A DNA stretch of 64,000 nucleotides from a virus (IMGVR_UViG_3300008262_000001); one strand, 5' to 3'. Numbered from the stretch's first letter, positions 1 through 33,390 are shown. Made by a program: numbers and translations. The notes: generated from the letters alone by a model not told the origin.

Positions 1-367
1 ATTTCTTAGCTTCTTCGTTAGGGATATCAAAAGCATATACCGTTATTTTATTCATTACGTTAAAAACACGGGATCTATTCATTGTAAGATATTCTGGAAA
101 TTTATTTGAAATACATTTTTGGCAAACCTTAAGATAGTAAATTTTATCTTCTATTTTTTTAAAAGTCTTACAAGACGTCACTGTTTTATCATAATACAAA
201 TTACCTTCTTTAGAAACTCTTATTTTCGAATTGTAATAGAATATAGATTCGCCACAATCTTTGCAAAAATGTTTATCATCTATATGATCTTCTAGAAGCC
301 TCCAGTTATTAATATTTGGCTCCTTATTGTATCTTTTTACTAGTGATTTTAAAAATTCTATCCCCAT
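1..367 (-). CDS. Putative free-standing homing endonuclease inside the fractured PolB gene (3' end runs off the window; not in the ORF track)
   Basis: Manual translation from ATG at 367: MGIEFLKSLVKRYNKEPNINNWRLLEDHIDDKHFCKDCGESIF...KVCQKCISNKFPEY..., open to position 1. Two CxxC motifs, directly after the PolB IntN stop, preceded by GATATATAA. No catalytic domain is visible in the window. Confidence 0.6.
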   Translation of the reverse strand, partial: MGIEFLKSLVKRYNKEPNINNWRLLEDHIDDKHFCKDCGESIFYYNSKIRVSKEGNLYYDKTVTSCKTFKKIEDKIYYLKVCQKCISNKFPEYLTMNRSRVFNVMNKITVYAFDIPNEEAKK

Positions 368-385
368 ATAATATTTTTTTATATG

Positions 386-394
386 TTATATATC
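386..394 (-). promoter_or_regulatory. GATATATAA motif (putative late promoter) overlapping the IntN stop, upstream of the endonuclease ORF
   Basis: Plus strand TTATATATC at 386-394; the same motif recurs before many genes. Confidence 0.6.
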
Positions 395-1108
395 AATATC
401 TATAGATAAAATTTTATCAGTATCTAAATTTATTTCGGAAGGCTTAATGTGAATTTTTTTATCATCTCTAAAAACAGTTACTGAATGGTCATTAGTAACT
501 ATAACCTCCTTACCAGATTCCGTAGTTATTTTCCACTTAGGTTTTCTAACTTTATGACGTATTATTTTTTTAATTCCTGAATATTCTATTTTTTCGTTCT
601 TATAATTAGCAGATGAAAATCCTTTGGTTTCTATAATATGATTACCCTTATGATCTACGAAGATCTCCTCGTATTCTGCCAAATTATTAAAAAAATCCTC
701 TATCAAAATCTCCTTTTTTTCTCCTATGTCGTTCATTATCAATAATTTAGACCCAGAAAAAACCGAATCAGTGTCACCGTAGCAAACCATGTCTAGAGTT
801 ATTTTTCTTGCATTTCTGACCTCCATTTTTTCATGAAGCTCAGTGTCAAGATGCCATATCTCATTAAAGTACCTATTGACTATTTTCTCTGCAAATTTCC
901 AAATGTCCTGACCTTGCAAAGTAACACTTTCCGCCACATCTGGATTAAACAACGAGAAGTACTGGTTTCCTAATGCTCCATAGATACTATTGAGCGTAAG
1001 CTTAACTGCTTGTTCTTCGTTATAAAAATCAGATGACTGCTTTTGTAGGGCCTTCAGCTTGTCATTCAACTCTTCTAGCGAGAGTGATTCGTAGTCTTCC
1101 TCTTTCAT
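386..1108 (-). CDS. polB: Family B DNA polymerase middle fragment (fingers helix, motifs B and C) fused to the N-half of a split intein
   Basis: KLTLNSIYG (motif B) and YGDTD (motif C), then SVFSGS... with TNDH (intein block B). The ORF stops after about 126 intein residues with no block F/G. Confidence 0.92.
   Translation of the reverse strand: MKEEDYESLSLEELNDKLKALQKQSSDFYNEEQAVKLTLNSIYGALGNQYFSLFNPDVAESVTLQGQDIWKFAEKIVNRYFNEIWHLDTELHEKMEVRNARKITLDMVCYGDTDSVFSGSKLLIMNDIGEKKEILIEDFFNNLAEYEEIFVDHKGNHIIETKGFSSANYKNEKIEYSGIKKIIRHKVRKPKWKITTESGKEVIVTNDHSVTVFRDDKKIHIKPSEINLDTDKILSIDIDI
389..766 (-). mobile_element. Split intein N-fragment (Ser1) at the PolB YGDTD|S site
   Basis: Starts at Ser115 (TCG 764-766). 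Block A SVFSGSKLL, block B VIVTNDHSV, no C-terminal HN. Confidence 0.85.
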
Positions 1109-1109
1109 T

Positions 1110-1877
1110 TTAAACTTCTACTAAACCTATTGCTATTACTGAATCTGACTGGGTTGATTTAACAAGAATTCTATTTTCGTGAAAATGTATTTCTGACGAT
1201 TCTTGATCAATATAAGAAAACTGGTTCTTGTAAATGGTATAAACACTTGGATTACTAAATCCATTAGGAGTAGATCCTTTGATAATCTGATATTGGAAAG
1301 AATTACCTCTGACAGTTACTCCTGATTCGTGTACATCAAAATGCAAAAGTTCCTCTGAATTTGATTCTATTCCTGTTAAGGATGAGAGTTTTTGGAATGA
1401 CTCGCTTGTGATGGCAAAGTTAATTTCAGATCCCTCTGTAGAGTGTATTTGCCTTTGAATGTTATCATCTATGTAAGCTAAAAGACTTATGTCTGCACAT
1501 TTGATAAAGATATTCAAAGACGAAGAAGAAAACTTTAAGCTCGTAGCAATTAAATCCTTTTCATAAGGTTGGGATTCAATGATTAGGTTGAGTTCTTCTT
1601 CTGGTCCAAAATATTTGAATACGTCAATGAGTTTTCCTATTTCAAGAATTCCTATTTTTAATCTATTAGGAGGTAAATCACCTTCCAATATTTCATTCAG
1701 ATCAACACTGACATATTTAATAACAGATTTATCAGGAGTTCTTACCTTTGCAAAAACATTGCTTCCTTCAATTTCAAGAGGTACACTTTTGTCTACCAAT
1801 TTAAGCTTTTTAAGGAAAGAGATAAAATTAGTAGAGTTTACTATTCTAAAATTCCAGGTTTGTGTTTTTTTACTCAT
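1110..1877 (-). CDS. Probable sliding clamp (gp45/PCNA-like)
   Basis: 255 aa alternating beta/alpha pattern with a PCNA-like N-terminus (FISFLKKLKLVD...IEG..VFAKVRTPD.SVIKY). Lies immediately upstream of the polymerase fragment. Confidence 0.65.
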   Translation of the reverse strand: MSKKTQTWNFRIVNSTNFISFLKKLKLVDKSVPLEIEGSNVFAKVRTPDKSVIKYVSVDLNEILEGDLPPNRLKIGILEIGKLIDVFKYFGPEEELNLIIESQPYEKDLIATSLKFSSSSLNIFIKCADISLLAYIDDNIQRQIHSTEGSEINFAITSESFQKLSSLTGIESNSEELLHFDVHESGVTVRGNSFQYQIIKGSTPNGFSNPSVYTIYKNQFSYIDQESSEIHFHENRILVKSTQSDSVIAIGLVEV

Positions 1878-3189
1878 TTTCTATATTTGTTTCTAATTCT
1901 TGATCCATTTGTGGGTCAATTTCATTTTCAGGATCCCAAATTCTTATTCCGTTATGGAATTCCTCTTTTGTTTCACTCATGAGTGATGTTGTTCTAGAGG
2001 ATTTTTTGGATATTCTCTTGTGTTCTTTCTCTATGTTCAAAACCTTCGATTTTTGAGTTTTGATTTCGAGATTCTTGTTCTTTATATCGGATTTACAAGA
2101 ATTAATTTCCTGCTTTGTTTTTTCTATTTCATCTTTTGTCAATTTAGTCAATGAAATAGATTCAAGCCTTCTTGATATCTCTTTCTTGAAAGGAGCTAAG
2201 AAATCCAGTACTTCTTGTGCTGCTCTCTTTTTTTCCGACATAAAAAGTAGGAATTTTAATTTAGCTTCCAAGAAATCTAATTCGTCCTGAAGATAGACTA
2301 AATCTCTTTCAAACCTTTTTAAAACAGTTTGCTCCTTGTGAACTATAAAGTCTTCCAAATAGTCTTCAATTGAATCATATTCAAGGACGTTTCCGTCCTT
2401 TACAAAAACTATATTTTCAGTTACTATCTGTTTAGTTTCTTTAAGTAGAACTTCACAAACATTTTTAAATTCCTGGTCTGTACATCTAAACTTGATACTG
2501 ATCTTAACTTCCTCTGTTGAAAAATTATCTATTTTGTAATTTAAACCAGTCTTTTCTAAAGCTAAATTCAATCTAGTAAAGAAAGATTCATATCTCTGCA
2601 ATGGTGAAATAGAATCTATTTTAAATGTCCTAGAATTTAAGTCAATTTCTGTCTCTCCTTCAATAAGCCAAGCAGACTTCAGTGAATCAACCCTTGTGAT
2701 TTTACCCTTAAAACCTCTGAAGTATGGCTTGAGTTTTTTGGTCTTATTTCCATCTAAATAGGTAATTAGTTCATCTGGCTTTCTTGGAAGAATATTCGAT
2801 TTGTATCCCACTGCAATTCCCACAATATGTGTGGACAATCCTATAGGATAATCAACATGAATCCAATCAAATCCACCTTCTTCGTTTGGTTGATTTAGAT
2901 CTTTGTATTTTTCAATTATGTCTTTGTACTTGGATGATATTTTAACTTGAGTATACCTTGGGGCTGATGGGGAAGGATTAACTGGGGTTCCAAAAAATCC
3001 ATCACCTAAAAGAATCTGATCAGAACAACCAAAAGGTCTAGCTAATTTGCAAATTGCCTGTGAAAGAGAAGAATTATGACAAACTATTTTGGAATCACCA
3101 ATAATAAAATTATGATAATTTTCAACGGTAATATCATAGAACTTTTCTGGTGAATCTAATTTGATTCTGTTTATTTTTTTAATTTTCAT
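1870..3189 (-). CDS. Split intein C-fragment fused to the C-terminal part of a type II topoisomerase GyrA/ParC/gp52-like subunit
   Basis: First 39 aa are MKIKKINRIKLDSPEKFYDITVENYHNFIIGDSKIVCHN (blocks F/G), followed by +1 Ser. The extein holds GFFG...SAPRYT with the catalytic Tyr. Confidence 0.93.
   Translation of the reverse strand: MKIKKINRIKLDSPEKFYDITVENYHNFIIGDSKIVCHNSSLSQAICKLARPFGCSDQILLGDGFFGTPVNPSPSAPRYTQVKISSKYKDIIEKYKDLNQPNEEGGFDWIHVDYPIGLSTHIVGIAVGYKSNILPRKPDELITYLDGNKTKKLKPYFRGFKGKITRVDSLKSAWLIEGETEIDLNSRTFKIDSISPLQRYESFFTRLNLALEKTGLNYKIDNFSTEEVKISIKFRCTDQEFKNVCEVLLKETKQIVTENIVFVKDGNVLEYDSIEDYLEDFIVHKEQTVLKRFERDLVYLQDELDFLEAKLKFLLFMSEKKRAAQEVLDFLAPFKKEISRRLESISLTKLTKDEIEKTKQEINSCKSDIKNKNLEIKTQKSKVLNIEKEHKRISKKSSRTTSLMSETKEEFHNGIRIWDPENEIDPQMDQELETNIENE
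3073..3189 (-). mobile_element. Split intein C-fragment (39 aa, basic)
   Basis: YDITVENYHNF (block F) and VCHN|S (block G); Lys-rich N-terminus. Confidence 0.92.
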
Positions 3190-4055
3190 TTTTTATAAAC
3201 TATTCTATCAAATTCCTGTATTTCTTTTATTAATTCGCTTATTTCTACTGAACAACTACTATTCTTCTTTGCATTATCGCTGAAATTAATAATCTCTAAA
3301 TTACAGATGTGCCCTATAATTTCTGGAGAGATGTTGTGTTTGAATCCAAAACATCTCGAATACCTGTGATCAATGGTTAACCATTCAGACTGTTGGAGTT
3401 TTCTGGATTCGGTAATTTTTTCCCAAATATCATCACCAAATTTTATTTTAGCATATCTTCTCATTTGACTCCATGTGATGTTGTGAACATTCTCATCATA
3501 AATACTTTTTAAGTCCATCATTTCTTTAGGTGCCCAAAATCCATTCTTTTCCGCAGTAGCCCTTTTTTTGTTTTTAATTTGGTCAACCTTCGAAGGATTA
3601 GTATATCCATATTTTTGTATCCATGTTTCTTTTAATTTATACAAAACATCATTTCTAGCAAAAACATTATCAACGCCATATTTTTGATTCAAAGATTCTA
3701 CCATATTTTTTCTAGCAATCGAGTCTCTTGATAGATTATGATTTGATCCTGTCGATAAAAATGTGCTTTGTTTTTTCATGATTAATGAGCAAGATTCAGA
3801 GCAGCACATACTAAATTTTTCATATTCCTTTTCACATATAAAGCATTTATTTTTATACCTATCTTTATAGCTTTTGAGTGAATTATAAAATTCAGGATAT
3901 TTCTCATAATTTTTTTTCCAAACTTTAAATGGTTTTCCTGTACTTTGTATTTCAAAAAATTTATCCTGTGACTTACACTTTGTGTTGCAATACTTATTAA
4001 GATTTAGCTCGGATTCAAAATCTTTCCCGCAATTCTTACATTTTTTTATCATCAT
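3186..4055 (-). CDS. Free-standing homing endonuclease (HNH/His-Me-like) between the two intein halves
   Basis: Two Cys-rich zinc-finger-like units, KYGVDN/KYGYTN repeats and C-terminal TIDHRYS...NLEII...N.KKN. Its stop overlaps the IntC start as ATGA. Confidence 0.8.
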   Translation of the reverse strand: MMIKKCKNCGKDFESELNLNKYCNTKCKSQDKFFEIQSTGKPFKVWKKNYEKYPEFYNSLKSYKDRYKNKCFICEKEYEKFSMCCSESCSLIMKKQSTFLSTGSNHNLSRDSIARKNMVESLNQKYGVDNVFARNDVLYKLKETWIQKYGYTNPSKVDQIKNKKRATAEKNGFWAPKEMMDLKSIYDENVHNITWSQMRRYAKIKFGDDIWEKITESRKLQQSEWLTIDHRYSRCFGFKHNISPEIIGHICNLEIINFSDNAKKNSSCSVEISELIKEIQEFDRIVYKK

Positions 4056-4602
4056 GGATTTTTACTTTTATATATCCAACGTGATGGTAGAAATCTTTTA
4101 TATCCATTCCTTCCTCAAGATCTTCAGCCTTAATCCATTTTGAATCAACATAAAAGGGATGATTTTTAGTACACTTAATAACCTCACCGGTTTCTAATTC
4201 AATCTCAATTAATTCGTTGGTAATTTGACCGATCCTTGGAGAATGTCCAATCCCGAAAGTTTTTTCACCAGTTTCAGTATCGATACAAGAAACCAATAAA
4301 TCACATTCTGGATTTTTATTATACCAGTCTTCTATTGTAATTTGGTTACCATCTGCTAATTCTATTTTTGTATCCCCTGCAACGCAGTCTCCGTGGTGGT
4401 ATAGCCCTGTCCCAAAAACTTCCCCTATGACGCCAACAGTCTTTTTAAAAGCACCTGGAGAATTTTGTAAAATCAATCTTTGGACTGGAGTTAAGCAATC
4501 GTAGAAATTAGGGATTCCTCTGCTTTGGATAACATAAAGAGCATATTTTCTATAGTCATTATCAATCTGTTCAGAGATAGTTAATGTTTTTTTTGTTTCC
4601 AT
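4036..4602 (-). CDS. Type II topoisomerase GyrA/gp52-like N-terminal 72 aa fused to a split intein N-fragment
   Basis: YALYVIQSRGIP..YDCLTPVQR...YHHGD, then CVAGDTKI (block A) and CTKNHPF (block B); the ORF then ends. Confidence 0.93.
   Translation of the reverse strand: METKKTLTISEQIDNDYRKYALYVIQSRGIPNFYDCLTPVQRLILQNSPGAFKKTVGVIGEVFGTGLYHHGDCVAGDTKIELADGNQITIEDWYNKNPECDLLVSCIDTETGEKTFGIGHSPRIGQITNELIEIELETGEVIKCTKNHPFYVDSKWIKAEDLEEGMDIKDFYHHVGYIKVKIHDDKKM
4039..4386 (-). mobile_element. Split intein N-fragment (Cys1, acidic) at the HHGD|S site
   Basis: Cys73 = TGC at 4384-4386; acidic composition complements the basic IntC. Confidence 0.9.
4068..4076 (-). promoter_or_regulatory. GATATATAA motif 12 nt upstream of the endonuclease ATG, embedded in the IntN coding 3' end
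   Basis: Plus strand TTATATATC at 4068-4076; ATG at 4055. Confidence 0.6.
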
Positions 4603-4653
4603 ATAAAGGGATCAATTTAAACATCTTACCCTCCGAAACCGATTTAATTTCAT

Positions 4654-4677
4654 AAAAAAAGCCCCTTTGGGCTTTTT
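4654..4677 (-). terminator. Rho-independent terminator after the 526-aa gene
   Basis: AAAAAGCCC-AAAG-GGGCTTTTTTT hairpin with T tract on the minus strand. Confidence 0.8.
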
Positions 4678-4683
4678 AAGTTT

Positions 4684-6264
4684 TTATTCTAAGGCTTTAG
4701 TGTTCCTAAATTTGAGTTGTTCTAATTCATCCGAATCGAGAAAAGAATCTAAATCTGACCAAATATTTGATCCGTATTTTTTCTCTAATTTTTTCCAATC
4801 GTCATCAGACTTAATAACACTATTGTACCTTTTGATTGTTTCTTCTTCGTCCGAGTTGTATTTGTCCTTTTCCTCTTGTATGAATTTAGCTAATCCAGCA
4901 ATTTGTCCAGAATTATCTACAATTTCTGAATCTTCGTCACCAGTAGTATCAGTTGTAGTTTCTGTTGATTCTGCCCCAGTTACTCCTTCCTCTCCTGTTG
5001 TTGCAGCAAGAGCAACTTGTTCGGGGCTAATTCCGTTCATAGCGTCTTGTAATACCTTTTCATCGATATCATCAAGTTGAATAAGAGCATAAATGAATTT
5101 ACCTGCATTCATTTGTTCCCTCTCAGCTTTAGAGATAAAGTCTTTGTATTCATCATAGTCTGCAAAAACTTGACATCCAGCAGAGTAAGGGCCAACACAT
5201 ACACCAACACCTTTTGTGGAAGATCTATGGATTTGCATTCCACAGTCCTCAACAAAAACCTCTGCAGGTTTGTATGTTTCGTATCTAGTGACTCCTACTG
5301 GATATCTACCGACTTTGATTTTTTCCCCCTCCACCATCATCTTATATTTCTCATCACCTATTGACGAATCTTTTAAATAGTAGATGGTGTCTCCTGGGAT
5401 TTTGATTCCTGTACCCTTCGGATTTAATGGCTTTTTACCGTAAAATGCTAAACTTGGTACTGTTGTTATTTGGTAAGGAACAAATTTATCACCTAAGTTG
5501 ACATTAGTTGCAGTTGATCCTGCACCCAAAAAAGTAGCACCAGTTGTGCCAGTAGCAGCTGCTGTGGCTGCTCCTGTTACACCTTCAGTTTCACTTATGG
5601 AAAGTTTAGGCAGTGATAGATCCTTAGTGTTGTTAAAAGGATCTTTGTCACTCTCGTTCATTTTGGAAAATAGTTCGAAAGAAAGTACTTTTGATTCTTT
5701 CGGTCCTGTAGATGCAGTAGTATTTAGAGCAACTGGTGCACCAGTTGCTCCTGTTGCTCCAGCCGTAATATCACCTCCATCATCTGCATTTCCAGAAATG
5801 AAATACAAAGCATCAGTAAATCTGTCCTGATTAGCAGAATCTTTTTTGACATTTAATCTGTTTCTGATACCAATAATAACAGCTCTTTTTTCATCAAGCT
5901 CCTTTATTGCTCTAGAATACTCTCCAGCATTTTTATCCTCTAAATGTTTTAAAAGGATCTTAAAGGTTTTAACCGAAATTGGGGTTCTTTCCAATTTGAA
6001 CGGCTCACTGGCGCCACATCCTTTATAAGGTCTTGACTCCTTAACCTCCGGTGTTATTTCAATTGATGAATCAACTGAACCTGTTAATCCTTGGACTCCA
6101 CCAAATAGACCTTTTACTAAATCAGCTGCAATTCTTGATTTTGTTTCTCTTTCAGTTTCTGGTCTTCCTGTTCCACTATCATCAGTTGTGGTGGTAGATC
6201 CAGTTACACCAAAGGTGTCTTCATTTAAGAAATATTCATTGAAGGACAGTACAGATTTCTTCAT
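4684..6264 (-). CDS. Putative peptidoglycan-acting enzyme (YkuD/L,D-transpeptidase-like motif) with GAT repeats and a capsid-targeting-like N-terminus
   Basis: IH-X14-SAGCQVF resembles the YkuD H-X14-17-S/T-x-G-C motif. GATGATGA repeats; N-terminus MKKSVLSFNEYFLNE; GATATATA at 6270-6277. Confidence 0.55.
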   Translation of the reverse strand: MKKSVLSFNEYFLNEDTFGVTGSTTTTDDSGTGRPETERETKSRIAADLVKGLFGGVQGLTGSVDSSIEITPEVKESRPYKGCGASEPFKLERTPISVKTFKILLKHLEDKNAGEYSRAIKELDEKRAVIIGIRNRLNVKKDSANQDRFTDALYFISGNADDGGDITAGATGATGAPVALNTTASTGPKESKVLSFELFSKMNESDKDPFNNTKDLSLPKLSISETEGVTGAATAAATGTTGATFLGAGSTATNVNLGDKFVPYQITTVPSLAFYGKKPLNPKGTGIKIPGDTIYYLKDSSIGDEKYKMMVEGEKIKVGRYPVGVTRYETYKPAEVFVEDCGMQIHRSSTKGVGVCVGPYSAGCQVFADYDEYKDFISKAEREQMNAGKFIYALIQLDDIDEKVLQDAMNGISPEQVALAATTGEEGVTGAESTETTTDTTGDEDSEIVDNSGQIAGLAKFIQEEKDKYNSDEEETIKRYNSVIKSDDDWKKLEKKYGSNIWSDLDSFLDSDELEQLKFRNTKALE

Positions 6265-6277
6265 AAATCTATATATC

Positions 6278-6604
6278 CTATTTGCTTTTCTTAATAATCA
6301 GGGATAAAAACGCAGCTAAAAAAGAAACAAGACCTGATCCGATGAATGAATATAATATTGGGTCTAATGATAATTGAAAATTATGCAAGGAGATTCTGGG
6401 ACTAAGTTCCTGTAATCCAGGCAATGCAAAATATAAAATCATAGATGTCCAAAAAGAAAAGCATTGGTAGCAATCCAAAAGATATCCAAAAAACTCGGAT
6501 TTAATTGTGACCCAATCTCTGAAATTTTGAAGGATTTTAGAAGCAACAACTATGTGAGTAAAACCCCAAACACTAAGTAGATAAAAAAAGAAAATGGATG
6601 TCAT
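6278..6604 (-). CDS. Small multi-pass membrane protein (DUF1360-like)
   Basis: Three hydrophobic segments and a CxxC..FW motif ([11 protein letters not shown]). Confidence 0.55.
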
Positions 6605-7632
6605 TGGAATATTTCGTTGTCTTTAAGTTCTAGTAAAAATTGTTTTTGCTCTTCAGTTAAGTTTTCAGGGATTTTCACATTAAGTTCAATCAAGAAATCT
6701 CCAATATTTCCAAATCCCATATTTGGGATTCCCTTTTGACTGAATCTAAGTACTGTTCCAGGAATTGTTCCAGGATCAACTACTGCCTTTAACTTTTCCC
6801 CGTTAGGCATTTCAACATCAATATTAGTTCCCAATGAAGCGTCAATAAAGCTGATGGTTCTTGAACTAATTAAATCTATTCCTCTACGAACAAAAGAATG
6901 GTCTTGAATCTCCTTCACTTTAATAAAAAGATCCCCGTTTCTTCCATTACCTTTACACTCGTTACCTTTACCTTCAACTACAAATTGCATCCCATCAGAA
7001 GCACCTGCAGGAATTTTTATGTCAACAATATCTTCAGTATCCTTTAGTCCAGACCCAAAGCACGTGTGGCAATTTTCTAAAACTACCCTTCCCGATCCTG
7101 AGCACGATGGACATGTTTGAACTGAATTTACCTGAACAAAACCATTAGTCTTATTAATGGTAATGAATCCAGATCCTGAGCATTGACCACAAGATATAAA
7201 AGAGGTAGAGTCATAAGCCCCAGTTCCTTGACAAGGTGAACATTTTTTACTTCTTTTTATTTTGATTTTCTTTTCAATTCCATTGAGGATTTCATTTAAT
7301 CCTATTTGAAGATTGATATTAAGAGAAGTTCCTTTTGTAAAATTCTGAGGGTTACCTCCAAATGGACCACTAGTAAATGGATTTCCCCAGTTGAATCCAT
7401 TGAACATATCCTGCAATGGATTTCCACCTTTTCTTGAAAAGTCGTACCTTTTTCTTCTCTCAGGGTCACTTAGATTCTCGTATGCTTCAGATATCTTTTT
7501 GAAATTCTCCTCAGCACCCTGTTCCTTGTTTCTATCTGGGTGGAATTTTTTAGCTAAATCTCGGTAAGCTTTTTTGATTTGATCATTGTCAGCTGTTTCA
7601 GGAACTCCTAATATTTGATAATAATCACTCAT
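6601..7632 (-). CDS. dnaJ: DnaJ/Hsp40 co-chaperone
   Basis: J domain with HPD, G/F region, four CxxCxGxG repeats and a C-terminal DnaJ domain. Confidence 0.97.
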
Positions 7633-7766
7633 TTTTTAGATTTGAAAAAAGAAGAAATTTTTCCTAGGATCCGGTTAATCTCCAATAAGAGGACTACGAA
7701 ACAAAGAAAGATAAAAGCTAGAATGCCTCCAACTACAAAGAAAACATAAGAAAATAATTTTCTCAT
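7629..7766 (-). CDS. 45-aa single-TM protein (not in the ORF track)
   Basis: [45 protein letters not shown]; fills the gap exactly and overlaps the dnaJ start as ATGA. Confidence 0.5.
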
Positions 7767-7767
7767 G

Positions 7768-7980
7768 TTAGGCTTCAGGATATTTCTGCATTAAGTAGTT
7801 AAGAAAACTTTGAAGTTTCTCTTTATCCAGTAAATCCTCAAAAACTAAATTCAAATTACCAAGATCCTCCTTGATCTTACAATTAGGAAAATTTTCCTCA
7901 ATTGATTCCTGAATTGAGACTAAGTAAATTTCGTTCTCTGGGATTATTCTAGAGTTGGTTAAATCGAGTTCGTCTGACAT
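7768..7980 (-). CDS. Hypothetical protein
   Basis: 70-aa ORF in the operon context. Confidence 0.55.
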   Translation of the reverse strand: MSDELDLTNSRIIPENEIYLVSIQESIEENFPNCKIKEDLGNLNLVFEDLLDKEKLQSFLNYLMQKYPEA

Positions 7981-8002
7981 TATTAATTTTCTTTATATTA
8001 TT

Positions 8003-8803
8003 TTATATTCCGATATATGTAAAAATTTCTCCGTCAACCAAGCATATTTTTATTGGCTTGATGTTTTTGGAGATATGTTTTAGTTTTTGTAATTGCTTAG
8101 GATTGGATTTTTCATTCTTGCTGTAACTGGATTTTCCCATTAAAACATCATAGGTGAAGGTAGATTTTACTTCAACGTAGAAATCTTCAAATTCAAAATC
8201 TGGTGTATATGTACCATATTTTGTTTTAATTGAAGATGTAGGTTTTTTTGGAAGATCTAAATTATTTTCGATAAGAATCTCTATATATTTTTTCTCCGCT
8301 GTTCCGTAACATTTTAATCCACCAACTAGAAATTCTTTACATCTTCCTGGGCCATTATGGTAGCTCCCGTTATTTTTCTCTATCCTTGAATTAACCTGTT
8401 TTTGTTTAATCTCTTTTGCATCTTCCCTTTTTGACCAATTTTTATCTGATAATTTTTTCCTTAACTCATCTTTAAATATTGAATCCTTCCATCTTTCCCT
8501 AGTTGTCTCAGAGCATAATTTTTTCCACTGCTCTTTTTCATCATCAGATTTTCTTTCATATAGCTTCTTATTAGTATTTGATATTTTTTCGTTTATTATA
8601 TTTTTTTCAGCATCGGACAATTCCGAAAGATATTTCTTCCTAGAATTTGAGGCTTTAATTCTAAGTTCGTCGTTTTCCCAAATTTTTGATACAGCGCATT
8701 TTTTACACAATGAACCTTTTCTTTCAGCTCTTTTCAAAAAATACAAACCCGAATAAGTTATTTCACTGTTACAAGAGGGACAATTTCTTCTGATTTTTTC
8801 CAT
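8003..8803 (-). CDS. Free-standing homing endonuclease, PD-(D/E)xK type, with an N-terminal zinc finger
   Basis: CPSC...CKKC, basic helical repeats and C-terminal YTPDFEFEDFYVEVKS. Confidence 0.75.
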   Translation of the reverse strand: MEKIRRNCPSCNSEITYSGLYFLKRAERKGSLCKKCAVSKIWENDELRIKASNSRKKYLSELSDAEKNIINEKISNTNKKLYERKSDDEKEQWKKLCSETTRERWKDSIFKDELRKKLSDKNWSKREDAKEIKQKQVNSRIEKNNGSYHNGPGRCKEFLVGGLKCYGTAEKKYIEILIENNLDLPKKPTSSIKTKYGTYTPDFEFEDFYVEVKSTFTYDVLMGKSSYSKNEKSNPKQLQKLKHISKNIKPIKICLVDGEIFTYIGI

Positions 8804-8844
8804 ATGGTATCTATCAGAAATTATCTTTTAATTTACCATCAAAT

Positions 8845-9759
8845 TCAATTGAATTCTTTTAGATATTTAAGTAGAGCCAAATCCTTCATTTTTACCTCCA
8901 ATTCAATTGACAATTCAAATCCATGTGTCTCTATTTTCTGATGTATCCAATCGGAATGTGCAACCTCTTTAGAACTTGAATCCTCAAATAATTTTCTGGA
9001 ATCCGAATAATGGACTAATGGAGTAAAATCTTTCCACGTAGAAACACATATTGATAGCGAATCGTATTCTGTTAGTCCTGAAGGGGGATTGCAAATATTA
9101 TGTAAATAATCAAATGTGATTGGTATTCCTATTTTTGAATGCACAAGATTCATAAGATCTACTGATGTAAATTGTGATTTTTTATCATCAATCTCTACAA
9201 CCAATCTGCTTTTTACATTGTGTGGTAAATCGAGATATATTTTACAAAACCTTTTTGCAGATTCTTGTTTAGTTGGTTTTGTTGTATTAATATGAATATT
9301 GATTGGGTATTCGTAACTTTGATCCAGACCCATTAAATCCATAATCTGAGCATGCTGATTGAGCTCCTTTATTGATTTTGTAACTACATCAGCTCTTTCT
9401 GAAGCTATAACACAATAAGGTGAAGGATGAAAACTTAAACGTTGGTCTAAGGACTTAGATAAATCCCCAGCTTTTTTCAGTGTTATCATTATTTCTTTGA
9501 AATCTGGAAGATCCTCTAATTCATATTCCGAACACCAAGGGAACATATCAGAGCTCATTCTGTACATTCTAATCCCAGATTGTCCATTAAACTCGATAAT
9601 TTTTATGAGATCCCTAACATTTCTAAGAGCAAGTTCTGAAACATAGACCAAACCCCTTTCTAAGAATGTTCTTTTAACCATTCCTCTATTTGTGGTTACG
9701 CCTTGATCTTCTAATGATAAACAGAGACAACAATATCCCATTCTTGGTTTATAATCCAT
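8845..9759 (-). CDS. uvsE: UV damage endonuclease
   Basis: MGYCCL, YRMSSDMFPW, RLSFHP and HYSDS...HSDWI motifs of the UvsE/UVDE family. Confidence 0.93.
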   Translation of the reverse strand: MDYKPRMGYCCLCLSLEDQGVTTNRGMVKRTFLERGLVYVSELALRNVRDLIKIIEFNGQSGIRMYRMSSDMFPWCSEYELEDLPDFKEIMITLKKAGDLSKSLDQRLSFHPSPYCVIASERADVVTKSIKELNQHAQIMDLMGLDQSYEYPINIHINTTKPTKQESAKRFCKIYLDLPHNVKSRLVVEIDDKKSQFTSVDLMNLVHSKIGIPITFDYLHNICNPPSGLTEYDSLSICVSTWKDFTPLVHYSDSRKLFEDSSSKEVAHSDWIHQKIETHGFELSIELEVKMKDLALLKYLKEFN

Positions 9760-13378: not shown

Positions 13379-13403
13379 TTTATAACTTTTTGAGTTATAT
13401 ATC

Positions 13404-18335: not shown

Positions 18336-18381
18336 TCGTTTGCTTTTATTTATATATCGAAAGAGGTCTCAGATTGACAAA

Positions 18382-19927: not shown

Positions 19928-21334
19928 TTATGATTTTTGTTTAATTAATTTTTTAATTTTTTCTATTTCTTTTTCGCACTCGAAATATTTCTTCTTTGTT
20001 GATTTCCTTTGGTTGTAGAGTCCTTGGAGAATTTCTCTTAGAACTGGTTCTTTACCCTCTTTAGAAAAGAAAACTGCTCCTGATGAGGTTTTGATAGCTC
20101 CCTCCGGGATATTTTGTAGATTCTTTCCCAAATAAATTTCAGGAGATATTCCCCATTGAATCATAGTGTTGGGATAAAGAGAAGCAAAGTCAAAGCATGC
20201 AATCCATTCGTATAAACCCTTGTCTGGCTTTTTAACATATGCACCTTCAAACTTTACGTGTGATTCTTCCTTCTTTTCCGATACAATTACCTTTTTCCTT
20301 TCCAGAAATTTTCTCAACATGAGTACTTCGGTAGTCCAAACGGGAGAAAGGGCTCGACTTATTTCCACTCTACTTACTCCAGCTATTTTAAAAAATGTTG
20401 AAAGAGTATCAAGTCTTTGATCGATATAGTGGACAAGAGCACAGTCAACTGCGTTGTAAAAAATAAACGTTTCAAAATCTGATTCATAAAGATCTTTTAA
20501 TGAACCCTGGTAGTGAATCTTTTTAATTCCAATTGCTTGGGTTGCAACGTAATCCAAAGAGTTTGATTCTCTGATCTTAATGACCCTGTCCCACTTTTTA
20601 TAGATCTCAAGGTAGTCGACCATTAGAATGTGCTGAGGAACTTGGTTTTTACCAAGCAAAACAGAACTAGGTGAACAGATTTTTGGATCAATACCTAACC
20701 TTTTACATCGATTGATTATGTAAGGCCAGTCATATCCAAACCAGTTCCATCCAGTAATCAAAGGCATTTTTGGGACTAGCTTTGACAGGAAAGTGTAAAG
20801 CATGTCAAATTCAGATTCGAATTTCCTGTAGTTGAAAGTCCAATCCCCTTTTTGACCGTTAAAGTGGTCTTTGATTCTTTTTTCGATAGTAAGGATCCTG
20901 TCTGGGCTCATGTCCTCAAGTCCCATGACCAAAATTTTTCCATGCGACGAAGCCATACCAACTGATAGGATTCTATTTTTAGCATTCTCTGTGTCTAATG
21001 AATCCGCCCGATTATCTGTGATTTCAACCTCAATATCCACAAAGTACTTCTTGGGAGTTTGGTAATCCCAAAAAGGTTTTGTGACCTGGGGGTCAAAAGA
21101 TTCCAGGATCTCCATTATTCTAAGTCGATCCAATTTATATGTTCCGTGTTTCTTAACTGGATATCCGTCCCATGATTCCCATTCTTTATCTCTGTTTTTA
21201 TCTGATGCAGAAGTTTTTTGCCAAACGAACTGCTGGGATTTTGGAATTGGTATTTTAATGATGTTAACTTCTCCTTCTTCTGTGTAGTGCGAAACGGAAA
21301 GGGAAGATCCTGAACTTTCAATATCAATGATCAT
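19928..21334 (-). CDS. polB: Family B DNA polymerase N-terminal subunit (3'-5' exonuclease, motif A, first fingers helix)
   Basis: FVDIE (ExoI), GWNWFGYDWPY (ExoII), YNAVD (ExoIII), FDFASLYP (motif A). Ends after RKSTKKKY without motifs B/C. Confidence 0.93.
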   Translation of the reverse strand: MIIDIESSGSSLSVSHYTEEGEVNIIKIPIPKSQQFVWQKTSASDKNRDKEWESWDGYPVKKHGTYKLDRLRIMEILESFDPQVTKPFWDYQTPKKYFVDIEVEITDNRADSLDTENAKNRILSVGMASSHGKILVMGLEDMSPDRILTIEKRIKDHFNGQKGDWTFNYRKFESEFDMLYTFLSKLVPKMPLITGWNWFGYDWPYIINRCKRLGIDPKICSPSSVLLGKNQVPQHILMVDYLEIYKKWDRVIKIRESNSLDYVATQAIGIKKIHYQGSLKDLYESDFETFIFYNAVDCALVHYIDQRLDTLSTFFKIAGVSRVEISRALSPVWTTEVLMLRKFLERKKVIVSEKKEESHVKFEGAYVKKPDKGLYEWIACFDFASLYPNTMIQWGISPEIYLGKNLQNIPEGAIKTSSGAVFFSKEGKEPVLREILQGLYNQRKSTKKKYFECEKEIEKIKKLIKQKS

Positions 21335-29559: not shown

Positions 29560-29581
29560 CAGATTTTTATTTTATATATCC

Positions 29582-33355: not shown

Positions 33356-33390
33356 TACCTTTCCTTTCTTTCTTTTTATATATCCAAAAT

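Follow-up and report, generated by a model that had tools for sequence, protein, structure and literature searches.

A gp52/GyrA-like topoisomerase II gene of a freshwater phage, most probably fractured by a mobile split intein

Fractured genes, in which a conserved enzyme gene lies in two adjacent open reading frames (ORFs) of the same strand that carry the N- and C-terminal halves of a split intein (IntN and IntC), with an endonuclease ORF between them, were described by Dassa et al. in 2009 from the Global Ocean Sampling (GOS) metagenomes. Their hosts were gp41 (loci gp41-1 to -9), NrdA, NrdJ, IMPDH, DnaE, DNA ligase and terminase, besides an unknown protein; the endonucleases were GIY-YIG or Vsr-like, the 3' end of the endonuclease overlapped the IntC ORF by 6-69 bp, a promoter-like element stood before the endonuclease, and one allele, gp41-7, was without an endonuclease (PMC2677866). 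Here we analyze a locus of this layout in a 64,000-nucleotide (nt) stretch of DNA from a large uncultured freshwater phage (IMGVR_UViG_3300008262_000001; the whole stretch is referred to below as the window). In this locus, a topoisomerase II subunit of the gp52/GyrA type is, most probably, encoded by a fractured gene, interrupted at YHHGD|S by a mobile split intein whose halves are separated by a gene for a free-standing endonuclease.

Besides the order of its ORFs, the window locus shares with the genes of Dassa et al. an overlap between endonuclease and IntC (of 4 nt) and the existence of alleles that lack the endonuclease, and it may also share a promoter-like element before the endonuclease. 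It is new with respect to them in its host protein and insertion site, which fall outside their eight enzyme types, none of these being a topoisomerase, probably in the class of its endonuclease, which looks HNH-like, and in an unusually complete series of states (empty, cis mini-intein, split and endonuclease-less, all at one site) with a homing footprint. The intein itself is remotely similar to NrdJ-1 and DnaE, with E-values of 0.04-0.1.

Two further groups of inteins in topoisomerases should be considered. A preprint of 2022 briefly mentions the split Topo2L (gp39-type) ORF1 of the metagenomic sequence MGS5, in which Hint and HintC flank a VSR endonuclease (bioRxiv 10.1101/2022.08.31.505936). 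Here too, a phage type II topoisomerase gene is broken by an endonuclease between intein halves, as is also the case for the B-type subunit of one of the relatives analyzed below (L001), but the MGS5 gene encodes the large ATPase/TOPRIM subunit and is broken at another site by an endonuclease of another family. Mycobacterial GyrA inteins (e.g. Mxe GyrA) adjoin the catalytic tyrosine. Like the window intein, they interrupt a type IIA topoisomerase in its A subunit, at a functional motif of high conservation, but they are contiguous, cellular and inserted at RY|TE.

The initial annotation of the window was aware of no earlier description of such an element in this host gene or at this site. In line with this, a full-text literature search, which has incomplete coverage and leaves absence unproven, returned no report of a split intein in a gp52/GyrA-like subunit or at this site. 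The site is not exclusive to split inteins, however, as contiguous inteins occupy the same HPHGD|S position in metagenomic GyrA-like proteins, and a fractured large subunit is mentioned in the preprint.

Gene anatomy and the predicted splice junction

The window is AT-rich (GC content 0.30-0.38), and nearly all of its long ORFs within bases 1-58,000 lie on the minus strand. Three of these follow one another at 4036-4602, 3186-4055 and 1870-3189 (Table 1), and the gp52/GyrA-like gene occupies the two outer ones, as the initial annotation had proposed. The ORF that comes first in the direction of reading (188 amino acids, aa) consists of a 72-aa N-extein and a 116-aa IntN that opens with Cys73 (intein position Cys1) and carries the motif TKNH at residues 145-148. 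The ORF that comes last (439 aa) consists of a 39-aa IntC (YDITV...VCHN), Ser+1 and the rest of the C-extein, which with the Ser amounts to 400 aa and includes SAPRYT, the Tyr being residue 79. The description of IntN as acidic and of IntC as basic is borne out by net charges of -11 and +2, respectively, the N-terminus of IntC being basic. The gap is filled by the 289-aa zinc-finger/HNH-like ORF that had been noted there, which begins 20 nt before the stop of the IntN ORF, in another frame, and the stop codon of which shares the expected ATGA overlap with the IntC start codon at 3186-3189. The final ~17 residues of IntN form a tail that overlaps the start of the endonuclease and is absent from most relatives.

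Family searches agree with these assignments. DNA_topoisoIV (PF00521) of Pfam matches both outer ORFs (E 4e-5 for the N ORF and 1.2e-30 for the C ORF), Intein_splicing matches both intein halves (E 2.8e-5 for IntN and 2.4e-5 for IntC), PT-HINT exceeds its cut-off on IntN, and PHROGs annotates the outer ORFs as topoisomerase II (phrog_551) and the middle one as homing endonuclease. The best solved relatives are the 'DNA topoisomerase medium subunit' structures of T-even phages, 8yo3 and 8ylu, which read YHHGE-NS at the corresponding position (E 8e-20), and the window SAPRYT corresponds in alignment to AAMRYT of E. coli GyrA, which contains the catalytic tyrosine. By its DNA_topoisoIV domain, its catalytic Tyr motif and the presence of a B partner, the host gene can be assigned to subunit A of a type IIA topoisomerase, of the T4 gp52 type. 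Public copies of such ORFs carry the labels 'hypothetical protein' or 'DNA gyrase subunit A', some of them in records labelled as bacterial metagenome-assembled genomes, and no match among GenBank phages was returned by a Megablast search with bases 1-9000.

The junction can be read from relatives that have no insertion. Seven IMG/VR relatives (L003-L008 and L010), with C-exteins 75-78% identical to that of the window, have an uninterrupted gene of 469-471 aa that reads GLYHHGD-SSM(S/A)QAI(S/C)KLARPF. When the window exteins are joined in silico, the resulting 472 aa align with L003 without a gap over the junction, at 79% identity (370/469). Splicing would thus restore YHHGD-SSLSQAI, as had been proposed, and the predicted junction, as judged from this alignment, is exact. 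The insertion point aligns with HPHGD|SAVYD of E. coli GyrA, which by textbook numbering is Asp82|Ser83. It thereby falls within the quinolone-resistance region, where the DNA-gate helix begins, Ser83 being a quinolone-resistance residue.

As the source is a metagenome assembly, it should be considered whether intein-bearing and endonuclease-bearing sequences were joined into a chimera. The stretch, however, recurs near-verbatim in numerous metagenome runs of freshwater and lake origin that belong to several studies, and contigs from independent runs of three studies bridge all junctions with 0 differences (3109-4918, 1500-3681, 3654-4388 and 3595-4817). Within the four runs whose contigs were aligned to the window, no endonuclease-less form of the locus was seen. 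The same layout, moreover, recurs in three relatives (L009, L012 and L001), and we consider the probability of a chimera to be negligible. Because independent contigs bridge all junctions and an intact relative aligns gaplessly over the splice junction, the split layout is neither due to chance nor an assembly artefact.

Table 1. Positions of the features of the fractured gene, of its partner gene and of the promoter-like motif in the window.
Feature	Position	Strand	Remarks
N-extein	4387..4602	-	first 72 codons of the gp52/GyrA-like subunit, ending in GLYHHGD; aligns with residues 1-70 of intact alleles and with E. coli GyrA up to HPHGD
IntN	4039..4386	-	116 codons; Cys1 codon 4384-4386; block B T-K-N-H 4159-4170; stop codon 4036-4038
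GATATATAA promoter-like motif	4068..4076	-	inside the IntN coding region, at its 3' end; the start codon of the endonuclease follows 12 nt downstream
Free-standing homing-endonuclease gene, 289 aa	3186..4055	-	two Cys4 zinc-finger-like motifs; DUF7487 helical module; C-terminal HNH-like (His-Me finger) domain with invariant residues (~3264-3377)
IntC	3073..3189	-	39 codons; block F YDITV; block G ending in His-Asn, Asn codon 3073-3075
C-extein	1870..3072	-	Ser+1 (3070-3072), 399 further codons and stop codon; catalytic Tyr codon 2953-2955
gp39/GyrB-like partner subunit, intact, 614 aa	10548..12392	-	HATPase_c and Toprim
GATATATAA, all copies	386-394, 4068-4076, 13395-13403, 18350-18358, 29572-29580, 33376-33384, 45782-45790	-	

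States of the insertion site and signs of movement

Across relatives, four states are found at this one site. It is empty in the seven relatives with the uninterrupted gene. It holds a cis mini-intein in P0313, a 589-aa protein found on 17 contigs in a phage-like context, where homologues of IntN and IntC are joined by a short linker and the IntC region is 60% identical to the window IntC. It is split with an endonuclease in the window, in L009 and L012, which have orthologous 289-aa endonucleases, and in L001, a 462-kb uncultured phage (LR756500.1) whose 300-aa endonuclease shares the DUF7487 module and differs in its C-terminus. Finally, it is split without an endonuclease in L011, a 293-kb contig in which a gap of 21 nt holds three in-frame stops and a fresh start codon, and in L013, with a gap of 295 nt. 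A Vsr-like reading of the C-terminus of the L001 endonuclease was considered and rejected; it would rely on a single motif, EFNGCRWH, and Pfam gave no nuclease family there.

These relatives bear on a reading in which the interruption would be removed or skipped at the level of RNA or translation, by a group I intron with the endonuclease in it, ribosomal bypass or frameshifting, leaving a contiguous mini-intein to splice in cis. Phage topoisomerase genes are known to harbour endonucleases carried by introns and to undergo translational bypass (bioRxiv 10.1101/2022.08.31.505936), and the IntN and IntC ORFs share a frame in the window, L009 and L011. In L012, L013 and L001, however, the frames differ, such that only three of the six alleles are in frame; the L011 gap, with its stops and new start, is too short for an intron; and the endonuclease ORF of the window overlaps both of its neighbours, as in the published fractured genes. 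An Rfam scan of bases 1-6000, with E-values of up to 1, returned no intron family, the single match being CRISPR-DR at chance level. RNA-level or translational removal is accordingly very improbable.

The site is not restricted to this type of phage gene. A search with a profile of IntN further recovered split forms that use this motif within other gene architectures (P0158, P0192, P0210, P0204 and P0233), and metagenomic GyrA-like proteins carry contiguous inteins at HPHGD|C...HN|S (P0275, with an intein of 401 aa, P0240 and P0238). Two of the latter, P0238 and P0240, have an additional intein at RY|TE, the classical position (...HN|TEARL), which shows that the two sites are distinct and upholds the earlier statement that mycobacterial GyrA inteins occupy a different one. 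P0275, P0240, P0238 and P0313 thus have the same insertion site as the window intein, but they are single polypeptides with no free-standing endonuclease in the gene; the P0275 intein presumably contains a nested endonuclease domain, and those of P0313 and P0240 are mini-inteins. As other split and contiguous inteins occupy the same position, the HHGD|S site is, by these alignments, an intein 'hot spot' and not exclusive to the window phage.

Outside topoisomerases, the closest relatives of IntN are found in the metagenomic phage proteins P0142 (3009 aa), P0143, P0146 and P0148, which have three to six intein matches each. The group comprises DNA polymerases of family A and one T4-like portal protein, some with nested HNH_3 domains.

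Signs of movement come from the comparison of a fractured allele, L009, with an empty one, L006. The two are 93-99% identical in most 150-nt windows of the flanking sequence. Around the insertion point, from -132 to +189 nt, 44 positions differ between them (~14%), mostly spaced by multiples of three, as third-position changes would be, with five silent changes in the final 15 nt before the site, whereas further into the C-extein the difference is ~2%. Such a cluster is the pattern expected of homing co-conversion or of selection for a site that cannot be cleaved, and either process would fit the sequences. Between distant alleles, similarity is higher in the intein halves than in the C-extein; the window and L012, for example, are 60% identical in IntN, 74% in IntC and 46% in the C-extein. 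The element thus shows signs of movement, and at the population level it is present in some phages and absent from others.

With these alleles, natural sequences cover each stage of the proposed route from cis to split intein at one site, including a near-isogenic pair that differs by the element, which makes both the gene-breaking model of Dassa et al. and homing by a free-standing endonuclease directly testable. With this locus, the range of hosts of natural split inteins also comes to include a GyrA-like topoisomerase II subunit, with HHGD|S as the site.

One relative has a further break in its topoisomerase genes, and another may have one. In L001, two fractured genes stand in tandem, at 3-2502 and 2511-5233. 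The first encodes the B-type subunit and is interrupted in its TOPRIM part by an IntN (…GLCLEENT…), a 373-aa endonuclease, the C-terminus of which resembles the HNH-like motif of the window endonuclease, and an IntC (…ISHN|SALSAV); the second, which follows directly, is the gp52-like gene, again split at YHHGD|C. In L011, gene calling divides the B-type region at 14-2084, which corresponds to one 614-aa ORF in the window, into two overlapping genes, one of 459 aa and one, with Toprim, of 235 aa.

Splicing residues, predicted pairing of the halves and the endonuclease

The search of gp52 homologues for the insertion site, by means of the N ORF, gave 97 proteins. At 90% identity, 77 clusters of 149-190 aa consist of N-extein, HHGD, Cys1, an IntN of 98-116 aa and a stop, and the remaining matches are fragments of intein-less alleles that read HHGD-SS(L/M). 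Cys is found at intein position 1 in 77 of the 78 IntN-bearing clusters, and C1, T73 and H76, the latter two being the T and H of block B, are invariant among 44 IntN sequences. Among 27 IntC sequences, the Y, the D and the terminal His-Asn are invariant, and position +1 is Ser in 25 and Thr in two. The window intein thus has the features of a class 1 intein (Cys1, block B TxxH, a His-Asn end and Ser+1), and its excision would restore an uninterrupted host protein. Cys1/Ser+1 chemistry is known for gp41-1, NrdJ-1 and IMPDH-1. With respect to these features, trans-splicing of the window gene is very likely.

Whether the two halves would find one another was addressed by structure prediction. 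The complex of IntN (residues 66-188) with IntC (1-46) received a score of 0.85, a mark that 51 of 78 solved complexes and 2 of 108 mismatched pairs attained, as compared to 0.00 for the best of three controls. Contacts agreed between runs in at least 95% of cases, with a partner pLDDT (predicted local distance difference test) of at least 80. The predicted interface spans residues 71-174 of the IntN ORF and leaves out the last ~14 residues, which lie in the tail. The prediction supports the association of IntN and IntC into one HINT fold.

Such pairing is also what a non-covalent assembly of the subunit would use. In that case, no peptide bond would be formed and the intein halves would serve as a dimerisation handle, like the added tails of Aeh1 NrdA; the predicted contact between IntN and IntC would by itself hold the halves together, with no need for chemistry. 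Genes that were split by an endonuclease and work without splicing are known, namely Aeh1 nrdA and T4 gp39/gp60 (PMC2677866; bioRxiv 10.1101/2022.08.31.505936). However, the near-invariance of residues required for splicing only (Cys1, TxxH, His-Asn and Ser/Thr+1) over dozens of diverged clusters would be left unexplained. An unspliced HINT domain of ~155 aa would, moreover, sit at the start of the DNA-gate helix, beside HHGD-S, a position that would probably be poorly tolerated. We therefore see only a slim chance for non-covalent assembly.

Nor does the locus look like a gene in decay. Between the window and L009, dN/dS (the ratio of nonsynonymous to synonymous substitution rates, by the Nei-Gojobori method) amounts to 0.088 in IntN, 0.063 in the endonuclease and 0.060 in the C-extein, meaning that all three are under purifying selection between these two phages. 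A decaying pseudogene, in a phage relying on the gyrase or topoisomerase IV of its host or on another copy, would be difficult to reconcile with such selection on exteins, intein halves and endonuclease, with split ORFs that are intact in ~77 clusters and on contigs of up to 293 kb, and with the retention of an intact B partner. The search for a second copy covered 64 kb of the genome, which leaves some room for a copy elsewhere, and in this window no gp52-like sequence was found beyond the two pieces. We give very little credence to a pseudogene.

The 289-aa endonuclease has orthologues in ~34 clusters, with invariant residues in the two Cys pairs, in parts of the DUF7487 module and in a C-terminal T-x-D-H...S...G-F...N-L...N-x-x-K motif. 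In the C-terminal domain these are D229, H230, N252, N261 and K264. The model of this domain (pLDDT 93.9) is composed of helix, strand, strand and helix, one strand ending in D229-H230. The structures that match it best all belong to His-Me/HNH nucleases, with Z-scores no higher than 4.4 in VIA-align, which gave weak matches of this type for the whole model as well: among them are Gme HNH 4h9d (Z 4.3, root-mean-square deviation 5.7, 70 aligned residues), BrxU 7p9k (Z 4.2) and the C-terminal domain of SspE (Z 3.5). Foldseek searches of the PDB gave nothing at E of 0.001 or less for the whole 289-aa model and only matches with E above 1 for the C-terminal domain, and Pfam scans of 28 homologues gave DUF7487 as the sole consistent match and no HNH family. 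As the structural matches are of the HNH type but weak, we name the endonuclease HNH-like, and the earlier zinc-finger/HNH-like description can be kept in this sense.

The 9-nt motif GATATATAA, found near the endonuclease start, occurs 7 times in the window, where 1.2 copies are expected, and all copies lie on the gene strand just upstream of ORF starts (Table 1). The copy at 386-394 precedes a second endonuclease-like ORF (2-367). We consider GATATATAA a candidate phage promoter element. The T4-type late-promoter consensus TATAAATA, on the other hand, has 6 copies in the window against 6.2 expected, and none at the locus, and the RNA hairpin predicted upstream of the endonuclease start is weak (z -1.84).

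Taken together, these features suggest the following mechanism. The free-standing endonuclease gene would have taken the place of a nested endonuclease domain, such that intein and host gene are split into two ORFs. The two polypeptides would pair through the acidic IntN and the IntC with its basic N-terminus, which would fold into a HINT domain; class 1 trans-splicing by Cys1, TxxH, His-Asn and Ser+1 would then give the 472-aa subunit with its native YHHGD-SSL. This subunit would team with its GyrB-like partner, the intact gene for which lies at a distance of 6 kb. The promoter-like motif probably serves for separate expression of the endonuclease, which in co-infecting phages would cleave alleles that have no intein and so spread the element by homing. 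The initial proposal of a split-intein fractured gene agrees with the empty alleles, the cis mini-intein, the endonuclease-less split alleles, the conserved residues and the predicted complex.

Several points weigh against this reading and should be considered when referring to it. The Intein_splicing match of each half lies under the gathering score of the family, and the window intein matches solved inteins weakly, with E-values of 0.01-0.1. In most pairs, dS is near or beyond saturation, such that dN/dS is usable for the window and L009 alone. The score of the predicted complex may reflect memory of, or likeness to, solved split inteins and should not be taken as proof of binding. Splicing is thus argued from sequence and from a predicted complex, and the HNH assignment of the endonuclease from motifs and weak fold matches.

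A different role for the split intein can be imagined from the endonuclease-less alleles. Several jumbo-phage lineages may have kept it after loss of the endonuclease as a domesticated, post-translational timing switch. The promoter-like motif within IntN would then drive separate, later transcription of the endonuclease together with the IntC-C-extein ORF, and topoisomerase II would be active only once both halves had been made and spliced, as the unspliced halves would be inert because the intein sits at the DNA-gate helix. We consider such domestication unlikely, and prefer the mobile split intein as described above.

Regardless of its role, the intein belongs to a family of 77 clusters (IntN of ~99 aa, IntC of 39 aa, Cys1/Ser+1) that is remote from gp41-1, NrdJ-1 and DnaE, and which may thus be a source of orthogonal split inteins for use in protein ligation.

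Neighbouring genes

The window contains a second fractured gene, at 2-1108 on the minus strand. A piece of a family B DNA polymerase (386-1108) follows its relatives up to YGDTD(S) and is then continued by an IntN (Pfam Intein_splicing, E 3.7e-9) and a stop; the CxxC-rich ORF that comes after it (2-367) runs off the window edge. In the seven relatives with the empty topoisomerase site, this part of the polymerase is an intact 389-aa ORF. The exonuclease and N-terminal part of the polymerase is encoded at 19928-21334 (minus strand), 19 kb away. As the N-terminal part is separate and the family B piece is itself split by an IntN, the coding sequence of the polymerase is divided into three pieces or more.

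Further genes that are likely to encode free-standing nucleases were noted on the minus strand. The 266-aa CxxC-rich ORF at 8003-8803 has no family match, and the 369-aa ORF at 27751-28860 matches PHROG 1314, 'HNH endonuclease' (E 4.7e-40). The phage genome seems to be rich in selfish nucleases. The topoisomerase genes are adjoined by ORFs for a full DnaJ-like protein with a CxxCxGxG zinc domain (6601-7632, minus strand) and for a protein syntenic with the Pfam UvdE gene of relatives (8845-9759, minus strand), in an order that is conserved in L011 and L012.

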